IMG/VR virus record: IMGVR_UViG_3300031555_003626 | Span: 64,001 to 128,000 of that record | Length of the DNA stretch: 64,000 nucleotides | Source of the DNA: a virus | Lineage: Duplodnaviria; Caudoviricetes | Direction: 5' to 3' (one strand) | Part shown: piece after piece, positions 9,491 through 41,200 of the stretch | Layout of the letters: every line of letters begins with the position of its first letter | How positions within the stretch are numbered: position 1 is the stretch's first letter | Position numbers and translations under genes: made by a program | Notes under the pieces: generated by a model | Told to the model about the DNA's origin: nothing | What the model saw: only the letters and a program-made list of their open reading frames with translations | Database searches by the model: none

Positions 9491-10794
9491 TGGCAGGATT
9501 AAAATTTTCACAACAAAGAAAAAGCCTACTTTCTAGTCAGACTAGAATACAGGTGCCGTGGGTAAAAGTAACTCTGGGAACTTATACGTTTGGAATTTTT
9601 GATAGCAAAACTAAGTCACAGGCAGGTAAAGATAAAAATGGATTTTATACTACTTATAATATAAAATATCCTAACTATATTCAAGATCTTACCGTAACTA
9701 AAATTAATGGACAGGTAAACCAATACTCATTAAATATCATATATCCGATTACACAGTTTGATGATCCAAACTTTTTTGAAAAAGTTTTTTCAAGTATAAG
9801 CAGCACGCGTAAAATTATTTTTTCTTATGGTGATGCTTCAGTTCCATCGTATGTGTATAAAAATGAAGAAGCAATAATTACAAAGATTACTCAAGGTTTT
9901 AATTTAGAGCGCAGTTCAATTTCATACCAAATAGAAGCTGTTTCTGGTGCAGCCCTTACTGCCGATGGCACGATTACTGAACTTGCATCAGGTGCAGCCG
10001 TAAAACCGAGTGAAAAAATAAAAAGCCTATTTAGAAGTAATAAGAGCTTACAAGATACTTTTACCGGAATGAGAATTAGTGACTTAGATAAACTTATTGC
10101 GGGAGATGACCAACCCGTTGTGCTTGATTCTAAACGAAATGTTTCTGCTTTAGACTACATCGCATACCTCGCAAGCTGCATGGTTCCATCAGGAACAAAA
10201 CCAGGTCTATCTAAAGATATTTATATTTTAACAGTACATGATGATACTATCTTAGATACAACATATGACCCGAGTAGCTTTGGAGGAAAAGGTGGACCCT
10301 ACTTTAAAATTACAAAAACATCTTATGCGGCAGAACACAGTGACGCCTATGAAGTTGACATTGGTTATAATACTTCTACAATTGTTCGAAGCTTTAGTAT
10401 TGAGCAAAATGAAAACTTTTCCTTATACTATGACTACCAAGGAGAGATTCACTCTGAAGAATATGTTCGTAGATTAAATAAACAAGGTGAATGGGAAACA
10501 GTCTATTCACCCACTTATATGGTTAGAGCTAATGAGTTTAATGCTACAGCCAAAGACATGATTTGGTGGACTAAGGCTACAAAGTATCCTATTACCGCCA
10601 CCATAACAATTCAAGGGCTGCTACGTCCTGCGACTCTAATGCAATATCTACGTCTGAACATAATATTTCCTGGTGGGCACGAGCACTTGGCGAGCGGACT
10701 TTATATAGTTACTAGACAAGTAGACAGCATCAATAGTAGTGGTTATACTACACAACTAACCCTAACTAGAATTAGCGGAGACAACAAAAATTAG
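9490..10794 (+). CDS. Baseplate hub/tail protein
   Basis: Follows LysM gene; C-terminal ATITIQG..SGLYIVTRQVDSINSSGYTTQLTL is typical of hub proteins. Confidence 0.6.
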   Translation: MAGLKFSQQRKSLLSSQTRIQVPWVKVTLGTYTFGIFDSKTKSQAGKDKNGFYTTYNIKYPNYIQDLTVTKINGQVNQYSLNIIYPITQFDDPNFFEKVFSSISSTRKIIFSYGDASVPSYVYKNEEAIITKITQGFNLERSSISYQIEAVSGAALTADGTITELASGAAVKPSEKIKSLFRSNKSLQDTFTGMRISDLDKLIAGDDQPVVLDSKRNVSALDYIAYLASCMVPSGTKPGLSKDIYILTVHDDTILDTTYDPSSFGGKGGPYFKITKTSYAAEHSDAYEVDIGYNTSTIVRSFSIEQNENFSLYYDYQGEIHSEEYVRRLNKQGEWETVYSPTYMVRANEFNATAKDMIWWTKATKYPITATITIQGLLRPATLMQYLRLNIIFPGGHEHLASGLYIVTRQVDSINSSGYTTQLTLTRISGDNKN

Positions 10795-25164: not shown

Positions 25165-25251
25165 TTTTTATCGTATAATATAAAGTCGGATAGTTGAGAG
25201 GACTGCTGTCCGGCTTAATATAAAAAATAACAAAAAGGATTGGTATTTAAA

Positions 25252-25776
25252 ATGAAAAAGAACAACGTAACTATTGAAAAAAGTGGCGAGCAGACCTATT
25301 CTTACTACTCGAGAGTACTTCAGAAACCTTTTGATTCTATTGAAGAGCTCACTGCTGCCGAAGCCGAGTACTGTGAAGCACGAAAGGCTAAGGAAGATGC
25401 AGCTGCTCAGAAGAAAGCTGATGCTAAGAAAGTAGAAGATGCTTTTAAGTCACTCAATGCTGCACGTAAGGTTTATAAGGAAGATCTTACTCAGCTTACT
25501 AAGGAATATGCTGAAGCTCTTGAGAATCTTAAGAAAGCTTATGAGCTTGGCAAGAAAGACATTGCTAACAAGCTCGCTGATGCAGAGGCTGCTTTCGATG
25601 AAGCTCTCAAGGCTTTTCAGGCAAAGTATGAGAATTATCACATGACTCTTAGGGATGGCGACTTTGAGACTACTATCAGCAGCCAGGTAAACTCTAATGC
25701 TAAGGCCCAGCCTGCAGCAGATGTTTCTAAGCTTGCTGACAGCATCTTTAACGTGCTGTTTGGTTGGTATAATTAA
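25252..25776 (+). CDS. Coiled-coil hypothetical protein
   Basis: A/K/E-rich heptads; TATCGTATAAT promoter and leader hairpin. Confidence 0.7.
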   Translation: MKKNNVTIEKSGEQTYSYYSRVLQKPFDSIEELTAAEAEYCEARKAKEDAAAQKKADAKKVEDAFKSLNAARKVYKEDLTQLTKEYAEALENLKKAYELGKKDIANKLADAEAAFDEALKAFQAKYENYHMTLRDGDFETTISSQVNSNAKAQPAADVSKLADSIFNVLFGWYN

Positions 25777-25836
25777 TTTGCATAAAAATTATTGAGACAA
25801 TTTGAGAAATTTCAAATTATTTATCGTATAATATAA

Positions 25837-25912
25837 TATAAGAGAAAACTCTTATACAAGTTTCCTCCTTTGTTCGTTGCGCTGGATGTTTCCTCCCGTC
25901 CAGCGCTTTTAT
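25837..25912 (+). ncRNA. Candidate small RNA with two anti-Shine-Dalgarno motifs
   Basis: Promoter 25822-25832, 5' hairpin 25837-25856, GTTTCCTCC twice, terminator 25879-25910. Confidence 0.65.
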
Positions 25913-25939
25913 TTTAATTATTATAAGGAATAGCTAAAA

Positions 25940-26323
25940 ATGCAAGATAAAGAAGCACAAGAACTTTTATTAAAAATATTAGAGTATGCAGAAGAAGGGA
26001 AATTGATCCAATTTCAGTTAATCACTACCTGGCATGATTTTATAAGTTATTGGAAGGATTATAGATCCACTAAGTTAGTTATTAAGATGTTAACGAAAGC
26101 AGCAGCTAATCTTTTTAAAACTTACTGTAAAGAAGTGTCGACCGGGTCGACGGACTTTACTAAACTCCTTGCTTACTCCCAACTCCAAGATGTTATAGCT
26201 TTCTACGAGAGGGACTTGGATACTCTAAAGCGAATGTTAGATGAATACGATGAGTATCTTGGTCACGGACATTTTTGGTTTTCTTTTTTAGGAGGTACAC
26301 GAGATATATGGAACACCCACTAA
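25940..26323 (+). CDS. Hypothetical protein
   Basis: AAGGA RBS, 127 aa. Confidence 0.65.
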   Translation: MQDKEAQELLLKILEYAEEGKLIQFQLITTWHDFISYWKDYRSTKLVIKMLTKAAANLFKTYCKEVSTGSTDFTKLLAYSQLQDVIAFYERDLDTLKRMLDEYDEYLGHGHFWFSFLGGTRDIWNTH

Positions 26324-26532: not shown

Positions 26533-26546
26533 TATCGTATAATATA

Positions 26547-26624
26547 GTAGGGTGAGTGCGAGTAGATGATGTGTCATTGGCATCGGGGGCGATGAGGTAA
26601 AACTCGTCGTCCCACTCCTTTTAT
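26547..26624 (+). ncRNA. Candidate structured RNA or leader upstream of nrdD
   Basis: GC-rich island after TATCGTATAAT; nested stems; ends in a T-run. Confidence 0.5.
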
Positions 26625-26708
26625 AGGCAGAAATTAGCCTTAGAATCAGCTAAATTAATTACAGAGCAGAAGGCTCTTAGACATAAAAATTGAGGAAAGG
26701 TATTAGTT

Positions 26709-28913
26709 ATGCAAAGAGTTATTAAGCGTGATGGCAGAGAAGTTGAGTTCGATAAGATGAAGATTATCGAAGCAATTTCACATGCTAATCAGGAAGTCAT
26801 TAAATCAAAGCAGATCAGCAGAAGAAAGATTGATCAGCTTGCAGATATCGTAGAAGAGAAGTGTAGTGTATATAAGCGCGCAATAAAGGTCGAAGATATT
26901 AACGACCTAATTGAAGACGAACTTATCTTCCGAAATTATAACAATCTCGTTCGCGCATTTATTAAATACAGACATAATAAAGAGTTAGTAAGAAAATCTA
27001 ATACTACCGATGATTCGATTCTCAGCTTAATTAATCTTAGCAATGAGGAACTTAAGCAGGAGAATGCAAATAAGAATCCGGTAATTAACTCTACACAGAG
27101 AGACTACATGGCAGGAGAAGTATCTAAGGACCTTACACGCAGACTTCTTCTACCTAAAGATGTAGTGAAGGCACATGACGAAGGTACAATTCATTTCCAT
27201 GACATGGACTACTTCGCGCAGAGACTACATAACTGCGATCTAGTTGCCCTAGATGACATGCTTCAGAACGGTACTGTAATCAGCGGTACTCTTATTGAGA
27301 AGCCACATAGTTTTTCTACTGCGTGTAATGTAGCTACACAGATAGTTGCGCAGGTAAGTAGTAATCAGTATGGTGGTCAGTCAATCACCCTCTCCCACCT
27401 GGCACCTTTTGTAGACATTAGCCGTAAGAAGATCAGAGCTGAGGTTGAAGAAGAGCTTAAATCTTTGGATCAGTATAGCCGAACTCTGTTGGCAGCTGAC
27501 ATTACAGAAAAGCGAGTTCGCGCAGAAGTAAAGCGTGGAGTACAGACGATCCAGTATCAGGTCAATACCCTACTCACTACTAATGGCCAGGCACCTTTCA
27601 TTACCGTGTTTATGTACCTCAACGAAGTAGAAGACGAGCAGACTAAAAAAGACCTGGCGATGATCATCGAGGAAGTTCTTCTTCAGAGATATGAGGGAGT
27701 TAAGAATGAGAAAGGTGTTTGGATCACACCGGCTTTCCCGAAACTCATCTATGTTCTAGAAGAAGATAACATACGAGAGGGAACTGACTACTGGTATCTT
27801 ACGAAGCTTGCTGCTAAATGCTCAGCTAAGCGACTTGTTCCTGACTATATTAGTGAGAAGATCATGAAGGAACTTAAGGAAGGTTCCTGCTTCGCACCTA
27901 TGGGTTGTAGAAGCTGCCTGTCTCCTTGGTATGACGAGAATGGAAAAGCAAAGTATTGGGGTAGATTTAATAAGGGAGTAGTTACTGTTAACTTAGTAGA
28001 TGTAGCTTGCTCGGCAACCGGCGAAAACTATTCTAAAGACATGGATAGCTTCTGGAAGACATTTGATGAAGTACTTGAACTCTGTCATAAAGCCTTGCTT
28101 TGCCGCTATGAAAGACTCAAAGGTACTATCAGTGATGTTGCTCCAGTACTCTGGCAGCATGGTGCTATCGCTCGACTTAAGAAAGGTGAGACAATTGATA
28201 AGCTTCTTACTGGTGGATACTCTACTATCTCACTCGGATATGCCGGACTTTGGGAATGCGTTAAAGAACTGACCGGTAAGGACCTGCTTTCTGAGGAAGG
28301 TCAGGAACTCGGACTAGAGATCCTCAGACATATGAATGAGAAGTGTGATGAGTGGAATGAAGAACTTAATCTTGGATTCGGAATCTACGGTACCCCTCTC
28401 GAGAGTACTACTTATAAGTTCGCTAGATGCTTGCAGAAGCGCTGGGGCGAAATCCCCGGAGTTTCGGATCGCAACTATGTCACCAACAGTTATCATGTTC
28501 ATGTAGAAACTCCTATTGATCCGTTTAAGAAGCTTGAGGTAGAAGCTAAGTTCCAGAGACTTTCTAAAGGCGGTGCAATCAGCTACATCGAAAGTGCTAA
28601 TCTTGAGAATAATCTCGAAGCGGCTCTGACTATTATCCAGTATATCTACGATCATATCATGTACGCTGAGATTAATACTAAGTCAGATTACTGTCATGAG
28701 TGCGGCTGGGATCGAGAAATTCTTATCGAAGAAGATGAATCTGGTAAGCTTATCTGGAAGTGCCCTAACTGTGGAAATACAGATAGAGACCGTATGAATA
28801 TTGCGCGTAGAGTCTGTGGCTATATTTCTGCACAAAACTTTAATCAAGGAAGAACCGCAGAGATTAGAGACCGCTATGTTCACCTAGATTGTCATGAGTG
28901 TGGTTGCGAATGA
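26709..28913 (+). CDS. nrdD: Anaerobic (class III) ribonucleoside-triphosphate reductase
   Basis: ATP cone VIKRDG, IHFHDMD, QYGGQS, PMGCRS, YVTNSYH, CxxC pairs, glycyl-radical motif RRVCGY. Confidence 0.97.
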   Translation: MQRVIKRDGREVEFDKMKIIEAISHANQEVIKSKQISRRKIDQLADIVEEKCSVYKRAIKVEDINDLIEDELIFRNYNNLVRAFIKYRHNKELVRKSNTTDDSILSLINLSNEELKQENANKNPVINSTQRDYMAGEVSKDLTRRLLLPKDVVKAHDEGTIHFHDMDYFAQRLHNCDLVALDDMLQNGTVISGTLIEKPHSFSTACNVATQIVAQVSSNQYGGQSITLSHLAPFVDISRKKIRAEVEEELKSLDQYSRTLLAADITEKRVRAEVKRGVQTIQYQVNTLLTTNGQAPFITVFMYLNEVEDEQTKKDLAMIIEEVLLQRYEGVKNEKGVWITPAFPKLIYVLEEDNIREGTDYWYLTKLAAKCSAKRLVPDYISEKIMKELKEGSCFAPMGCRSCLSPWYDENGKAKYWGRFNKGVVTVNLVDVACSATGENYSKDMDSFWKTFDEVLELCHKALLCRYERLKGTISDVAPVLWQHGAIARLKKGETIDKLLTGGYSTISLGYAGLWECVKELTGKDLLSEEGQELGLEILRHMNEKCDEWNEELNLGFGIYGTPLESTTYKFARCLQKRWGEIPGVSDRNYVTNSYHVHVETPIDPFKKLEVEAKFQRLSKGGAISYIESANLENNLEAALTIIQYIYDHIMYAEINTKSDYCHECGWDREILIEEDESGKLIWKCPNCGNTDRDRMNIARRVCGYISAQNFNQGRTAEIRDRYVHLDCHECGCE

Positions 28914-41035: not shown

Positions 41036-41200
41036 TAATTTTAGCCTGCTGGCGAAATAGACAGGATTTCGTTTATAAATTTCCGAAACTTTGTCTATTT
41101 CGTCAGTTTACAAATGGGCGAAAACATGTTATAATATAAATGTAAGTCGGAGGAAACAGACTTACAAAAAAATACATATTATACGAAAGAGGAAATTGTT

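Follow-up and report, generated by a model that had tools for sequence, protein, structure and literature searches.

A conserved structured RNA element with two anti-Shine-Dalgarno motifs in an uncultured gut phage and its relatives

The small RNA LhrC of Listeria monocytogenes binds Shine-Dalgarno (SD) sequences without Hfq through CU-rich sites in its linker and terminator loop (PMC4132741). Among Firmicutes, RsaE/RoxS and RNAIII use C-rich unpaired motifs that pair with the SD and repress translation (PMC4132741), and in the cuckoo, or CcsR1-4, RNAs of Alphaproteobacteria the anti-SD sequence CCUCCUCCC is found twice, in loops (PMC8034643). Phage T4 acts on the same region of the mRNA with a protein, the endoribonuclease RegB, which targets the GGAG of early-gene SDs and shuts off early mRNAs (PMC1702504). 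Here we describe an intergenic element from an uncultured gut phage in which an anti-SD word is again found twice, once between two hairpins and once in the loop of a terminator.

The phage record is 233,329 bp long (~233 kb; G000 below), and the window, the whole stretch of 64,000 nucleotides that was analysed, corresponds to bases 64001-128000 of it; coordinates without a prefix are those of the window. The genome has a G+C content of ~38%, many tRNA genes and strong SD usage, and its + strand carries nearly all of the genes. Sequence contexts in G000:1-14800 and 218500-233329 repeat ~218.5 kb apart (for example 5429 with 223923 and 14104 with 232597), pointing either to ~14.8 kb of terminal redundancy or to a wrap-around in the assembly. 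The element lies between an ORF of 174-178 aa (25240 or 25252 to 25776, + strand) and one of 127 aa (25940-26323, + strand), with a SNF2 helicase and a homing endonuclease upstream and nrdD/nrdG ~0.8 kb downstream. The phage collection yielded nothing that matched the 2-kb region at the nucleotide level or the upstream ORF at the protein level, and since the matches to NrdD and the helicase were all distant or from uncultured sources, neither a cultured relative nor the host was found. A Firmicute living in animal guts is the probable host. The window is present in DNA runs labelled as feces metagenomes, with only small shares of it in runs labelled as bovine gut, and some of the relatives' contigs have been binned into Lachnospiraceae and Bacteroidales MAGs. 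Contigs L246-L249 of the phage family, for instance, are binned in a Lachnospiraceae MAG from water deer cecum and in a Bacteroidales MAG; in the lineage binned with the Lachnospiraceae, the gene corresponding to the upstream ORF is followed by nothing more than a plain terminator that lacks CCUCC.

All of the elements described in an earlier, sequence-only reading of the locus, which had proposed an anti-SD small RNA, are present. The promoter motif TATCGTATAAT is at 25822-25832 (+ strand), with its -10 hexamer TATAAT at 25827-25832. There are 13 copies of TATCGTATAAT in the genome, all on the + strand, where they precede protein genes and three tRNA clusters, and the promoter part of the unit was matched at four other places in the genome. 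A conserved box, (T/C)TGAGACAA, is found at 25792-25800 (+ strand) and in the intergenic regions of most relatives; as it lies ~30 nt before the -10, too far upstream for a standard -35, it may be a regulator site. The phage-wide promoter class to which TATCGTATAAT belongs would produce an RNA of ~75 nt, starting at ~25839 and ending in the U-tract at ~25912, the end being set by a strong intrinsic terminator. Near its 5' end is the inverted repeat that had been described as a hairpin (25837-25856, + strand; TATAAGAG and CTCTTATA around AAAA, UAAGAG/CUCUUA in the RNA). The repeat is there, but with a start ~7 nt after the -10 only ~5-6 bp of it would be within the RNA.

The first anti-SD word, motif 1 (GTTTCCTCCTT at 25860-25870, or UUUCCUCCUUU at 25861-25871, + strand), is either unpaired or can occupy the loop of a weak 5-bp A-U stem, ACAAG/TTTGT, formed by 25856-25860 with 25869-25873. 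It is followed by the terminator hairpin (25879-25906, + strand), in which a GC-rich stem of 10 bp, including one G-U pair, is made by the 5' arm GCGCTGGATG (25879-25888) and the 3' arm CGTCCAGCGC (25897-25906). The 8-nt loop between them, TTTCCTCC at 25889-25896 (UUUCCUCC in the RNA), is the second anti-SD word, and the stem runs into the U-rich tail TTTTATTTT at 25907-25915, all on the + strand. The terminator was also recovered by a consensus scan, with 10 pairs, 7 of them G-C, a loop of 8 and the tail TTTTATTTTA. The predicted fold of the 76-nt RNA has an energy of -23.7 kcal/mol, with a z-score of -5.6 relative to shuffled sequences. The unit had been described as self-contained, and in so far as it has its promoter motif and terminator and no ORF of 30 aa or more within it this holds; however, the 127-aa ORF, with a weak AAGGA ribosome-binding site (RBS), starts only 33 nt after the stem. 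On the minus strand of the unit two GGAGG words occur, but neither has a suitably spaced start codon, and no reading frame there is conserved. An L31 leader on that strand, suggested by a sub-threshold match, was rejected, as the match consists only of the hairpin plus AAGGAG.

To see how far the unit is conserved, regions flanking the upstream ORF were drawn from viral contigs, exact-protein look-ups and a metagenome scan. Two CCTCC words, 19-33 nt apart (median 28), were present in 72 of the 81 downstream regions fetched, ~60-120 nt after the stop codon of the upstream ORF, and the unit is conserved after the same gene in about 70 distinct metagenomic relatives. The second CCTCC is within a hairpin loop in ~74 variants. 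Among 67 distinct terminator hairpins the stem is 7-16 bp long (median 12) with a median energy of -18.5 kcal/mol, and a T-rich tail follows, with 5-7 T among its first 8 nt in 64 of the 67. As had been predicted for a functional loop, the CCUCC stays fixed while the stem around it changes: the 5' arm occurs in 59 different versions, and in an alignment of 70 distinct units (A3), which formed the basis of the covariation test, 94% of the cells of the terminator helix are paired and compensatory changes on both sides are seen at 11 of 11 pairs. The covariation score for the whole structure is 0.43, compared with 0.19 in shuffles, and controls in which the partner was slid pair in at most 47%. 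RNAalifold independently recovers the terminator helix and leaves motif 1 unpaired; the weak A-U stem around motif 1 is paired in 65% of cells, with two of its five pairs covarying. In the sequence logo the core of motif 1, UUCCUCCUUU, is kept in 66-70 of 71 variants and the UUCCUCC of the terminator loop in 59-63 of 71, with variable flanks in both cases. Nearly all relatives have a TAT(C/T)GTAT..TATAAT promoter ahead of the unit, and a 5' hairpin of the UAAGAnnnnUCUUA type (UAAGA...UCUUA) recurs in most. One or both motifs have been lost in L135, L147, L169, L209 and L213, and one more distant lineage has a plain terminator only.

A covariance model, R1, built from this alignment finds a single true copy in G000 (70.8 bits) and the expected copies in the relatives. 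A second match in G000 (180487-180536, 24 bits) was discarded, being a plain terminator without CCUCC. Viral contigs were also scanned for the exact 14-mer TTTCCTCCTTTGTT, giving matches that are mostly reverse-strand RBSs, and R1 gave nothing above 24 bits and nothing convincing on 100 of the unrelated viral loci with this 14-mer. In the distant relative G003, whose copy of the unit is L008, R1 finds a second unit with 28 bits (L230:1467-1565, equivalent to G003:144733-144831), 9 kb from the first and within the cluster of early promoters. This second unit has a TTGTATAAT promoter of its own, exposes CACCUCCUUUCU and carries no CCUCC in its terminator.

The simplest account of the locus would be ordinary punctuation, that is the terminator of the upstream gene followed by the promoter of the next, with CCUCC words that have no function. 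The terminator would indeed also end transcripts of the upstream ORF, whose own promoter is at 25169, and the few relatives without one or both motifs retain the hairpin. Punctuation alone does not, however, account for a loop CCUCC that is fixed over 59 different stems, or for a UUCCUCCUUU that is fixed in nearly every variant. The + strand of the whole genome has just four occurrences of TTTCCTCC, two of them being the ones here, 28 nt apart, and the probability of such a pair arising by chance in G000, estimated from base composition and counts, is ~2e-4. Among the non-coding sequences of G000 and G003 we saw no further CCTCC within the loop of a hairpin resembling a terminator. The scarcity of CCUCC on the coding strand (26 against 179 GGAGG) largely reflects base composition and SD sites and was therefore not used as evidence. 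We consider this account very improbable, and it is strongly disfavoured. The conserved architecture, the covarying stem and the fixed words instead point to a structured RNA element with two selected anti-SD words rather than a chance arrangement, and we have little doubt that the unit is real and under selection.

The neighbouring genes bear on whether such an element would act in cis or in trans. The upstream ORF, predicted to be a coiled-coil protein, is the constant left-hand neighbour of the unit and has >1600 metagenomic homologues. Its AlphaFold model consists of a long single helix (30-125) and a small beta domain, and it had no match in Pfam, PHROG or the PDB. The downstream 127-aa ORF is modelled as a three-helix bundle (predicted structure, pLDDT 90). 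Foldseek gave only generic helical matches and no informative fold for either protein. Homologues of the 127-aa ORF have their start 11-54 nt past the stem in 70 of 74 relatives, which leaves no room for a promoter, so that the unit is also the leader of that ORF, which would be expressed through read-through of the terminator. This role as a leader in most relatives was missed by the sequence-only reading, whose interpretation is partly supported, by a discrete, conserved and structured unit with two invariant anti-SD words.

With such an arrangement a purely cis role is possible. The unit would then be chiefly the 5' UTR of the 127-aa ORF, the terminator gating transcription, for example through phage antitermination, while the anti-SD motifs either mask the weak RBS of the ORF or bind a factor that chooses between termination and read-through. 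The RBS is weak throughout the relatives (AAGGA, CAGGA or TAGGA), motif 1 pairs with the AAGGA in a longer fold, and in some relatives (L127 and L133) the U-tail is interrupted, all of which would suit a leader. However, the pairing with the RBS amounts to only ~5 bp, and the RBS varies while the motifs are invariant over 10 nt, which argues that the partner is itself invariant, either SD sites as a population or a factor that recognises the 16S tail. An attenuator would also be expected to stand before a gene without its own promoter, as is the case in those 70 relatives but not in the distant group. In L008/G003 and L137 what comes after the unit is a separate TTTACA-17-TATAAT promoter with an unrelated gene, and in G003 the homologue of the 127-aa ORF, 30 kb distant, lies behind another promoter of that type and lacks an anti-SD leader. 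The RNA and the ORF are therefore separable, and the constant partner of the unit is the upstream coiled-coil ORF. The consensus fold contains the terminator helix but no alternative antiterminator helix, neither the fold nor the Rfam matches show a conserved antiterminator or an aptamer for a ligand or protein, and no riboswitch or leader family in Rfam matched the unit. On balance, a role confined to the leader appears rather unlikely. In one run guessed to be of RNA, and represented by contigs only, a contig spans 25710-25920 and coverage resumes at 26099-26184, though contigs of this kind are blind to the transcript, its ends and its strand.

A second TATCGTATAAT promoter is found nearby, in the region 26533-26710, where it is followed by a ~90-nt structured leader and a terminator-like hairpin of 11 pairs (26586-26613). 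On the 3' side of that hairpin are a GCTAAATTA promoter motif (26649) and then nrdD (26709). The arrangement could represent a further short RNA, or else an attenuator ahead of the ribonucleotide reductase genes.

If the unit pairs with SD sequences, the distribution of RBS types along the genome should be of interest, and this was tabulated with a simple gene caller. RBSs with a GGAGG core are concentrated at 90-113 kb of G000 (~26-49 kb of the window), directly after the RNA, with an odds ratio of 6 (p = 1e-8), in agreement with the claim that early-region genes have GGAGGA-type sites. The same pattern is seen in G003, where GGAGG cores are present in 42 of 74 genes at 130-160 kb, beside its two anti-SD RNAs and TGTTATAAT promoters. 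The 90-113 kb region of G000 carries a series of canonical host-type promoters, TTTACA-17-TGTTATAAT. Between 29400 and 49500 of the window (93-113 kb of G000) we observed at least 11 near-identical promoters of this type, TTTTGTCAGTTTACA and TGTTATAAT separated by 17 nt, with transcripts that would begin GTAAGAAAC and carry small ORFs whose RBSs read (T/C)GGAGGA(A/T); the stretch probably represents the early region. To the GGAGGAAA sites that had been listed, two inside genes can be added, at 10282 and 51042, and the one at 41149 is the loop of a 5' hairpin and not an RBS.

Genes with the other common promoter motif, GCTAAATTA, had been said to use mostly other RBS types, and tabulation by promoter class agrees: their sites are mostly of the AAGGAG type, with GGAGG in only 4 of 29. 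GCTAAATTA has 39 copies on the + strand and 3 on the - strand of G000, usually as tttGCTAAATTAtttag and 30-80 nt before a start codon, those in the window being at 1529, 4437, 10856, 17346, 18307, 22822, 24220, 26649, 39702, 55328 and 59634. It is also found in G003, with 23 copies on the + strand, and looks like a phage-specific (middle or late) promoter class. The further claim that late mRNAs would be spared by the RNA fared less well. Motif 1, through CUCCUUU, still pairs over 7 bp with AAAGGAG. The predicted duplex energies with motif 1 have a mean of -13.3 kcal/mol for genes of the early cluster and -11.3 for other genes; in a separate comparison of predicted duplexes the means are -10.2 for genes with the GCTAAATTA motif and -11.7 kcal/mol for all others. 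The contrast between gene classes is thus about 1.5 (1-2) kcal/mol, with p = 0.04-0.06.

The account that we favour is that the unit is a phage-borne small RNA which acts in trans through its anti-SD words, in the manner of LhrC, RsaE/RoxS, RNAIII and the cuckoo RNAs, a proposal that we see as evenly balanced between being right and being wrong. A promoter and an intrinsic terminator bound a non-coding unit at the sequence level, and the unit has a conserved, accessible C/U-rich motif complementary to the SD, as in the general class of such RNAs. The RNA would display the anti-SD core twice, as UUCCUCCUUU in the open linker or weak loop and as UUUCCUCC in the loop of the terminator, and would pair in trans with RBSs of the GGAGG(AAA) type, blocking the binding of 30S subunits. 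Since the flanks of the motifs are variable or structural, the recognition element appears to be a generic anti-SD and not a gene-specific seed. The candidate targets would be mRNAs with strong SDs, that is host messages and the phage early genes just downstream, which have the strongest GGAGGA sites. Read-through of the terminator would in most relatives give the same sequence a second role as the 5' leader of the next ORF.

There are several points against masking in trans. A generic anti-SD would not spare the mRNAs of the phage itself, the predicted discrimination between gene classes is small, some relatives have lost motifs and one lineage has a plain terminator. Nor did a conserved specific target of the RNA emerge from the target search. 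The best predicted site, at G000:142372, is the RBS of an RlaP-like nucleotidyltransferase (-24 kcal/mol), but the gene has no homologue in the five relatives searched and was rejected as a conserved target. At the 5' end of an early transcript (41141-41166) a perfect 8-bp hairpin, TGTAAGTC/GACTTACA, has a 10-nt loop, GGAGGAAACA. This loop does not form part of an RBS, and its complementarity to UGUUUCCUCC in the terminator loop of the RNA is complete. It too was rejected as a conserved partner, as the homologous leaders in two other relatives (G001 and G002) keep the hairpin with other loop sequences.

The invariance of the motifs would also be consistent with a partner that recognises a universally conserved sequence, and it could be that the RNA imitates the 3' tail of 16S rRNA as a decoy, titrating a protein that recognises the anti-SD tail and leaving mRNAs alone. 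Such a protein might be a defence or toxin nuclease that cuts CCUCC, a 16S-maturation RNase or a ribosome-associated factor. Motif 1 has CCUCCUUU in common with what we take to be the usual Firmicute 16S tail, and the 12-nt CACCUCCUUUCU exposed in the second RNA of G003 is presumably identical to that tail; both of the proteins flanking the unit are without known function. On the other hand, no candidate binding protein or nuclease was identified, the phage genome has no homologue of bS21, and pairing with a population of SD sites explains the invariance equally well, so we regard a decoy of this kind as quite improbable. In a broader proposal, which we hold to be unlikely, this widespread family of gut jumbo phages would make an abundant mimic of the 16S tail that reprogrammes translation globally, masking strong GGAGG(AAA) RBSs on host messages and on the early mRNAs of the phage and switching early to later expression, or that serves as a decoy guarding anti-SD tails from a host nuclease.

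Regulatory RNAs encoded by phages are, to our knowledge, sparsely mapped, particularly for the uncultured phages of gut Firmicutes, and the examples of phage control of translation of this sort that we know of have until now been proteins, such as RegA and RegB of T4. About 70 covarying sequences define the unit described here; its motif is clear, and R1 allows further copies to be sought. If it masks RBSs in trans it would represent RNA-based control by a phage of host translation or of its own early translation, and would offer a small, naturally occurring device for SD-selective repression. Should it act in cis as a leader, it would be a new class of attenuator built around a 16S mimic, and if it reprogrammes translation globally it would be an RNA counterpart of T4 RegB, switching early to later expression.

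Of the systems described above, LhrC is similar in layout. The predicted phage RNA is short, as LhrC is, and probably likewise comes from a low-GC Gram-positive setting. Each has a promoter of its own, then a hairpin at the 5' end, a single-stranded linker and the hairpin of the terminator, and in both CU-rich sites followed by U's are found in the linker and in the terminator loop, the two sites being conserved in the phage unit. Unlike LhrC, the phage unit does not have a third CU-rich site in the loop of its 5' hairpin, and where LhrC has UCCC it has the complete anti-SD core CCUCC; it is also encoded by a phage and serves at the same time as an ORF's leader. The cuckoo/CcsR RNAs share with it the double display of the anti-SD and a link to a small upstream protein gene. 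They differ in host phylum and in genetic context, and in place of two stable hairpins with CCUCCUCCC loops the phage unit has a shorter motif, CCUCC(UUU), with its first copy in an open or weak-stem context and only the terminator hairpin well supported. RsaE/RoxS and RNAIII have defined regulons and extended seeds, while only a generic anti-SD is conserved here, and the Rfam search showed no likeness to them in sequence or covariance model. The Rfam consensus of the atoC motif (RF01733) has a -10-like start and a terminator loop CCCUCCU, and both the window unit and L008 align with it end to end; unlike the phage unit, atoC is classed as cis-regulatory, its function is unknown and it comes from unrelated bacteria. 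With RegB, a protein nuclease, the parallel is one of strategy and not of homology, GGAGG sites being clustered in early genes here.

At gathering thresholds Rfam gave no match in the 64-kb window. The unit scores 16.9 bits (E = 2.3) with LhrC (RF00616), against a threshold of 110, and is thus not a member; the distant L008 variant scores 17.5 bits with CcsR1/cuckoo (RF02791), against 65.3, this family giving no match to the window unit in E-value mode; and the scores with atoC RNA are 18.1 bits for the window unit and 21.3 bits for L008, against 50. As all of these scores fall short of membership, we treat the unit as a new family, carried by phages and proposed to be of the same kind in function.
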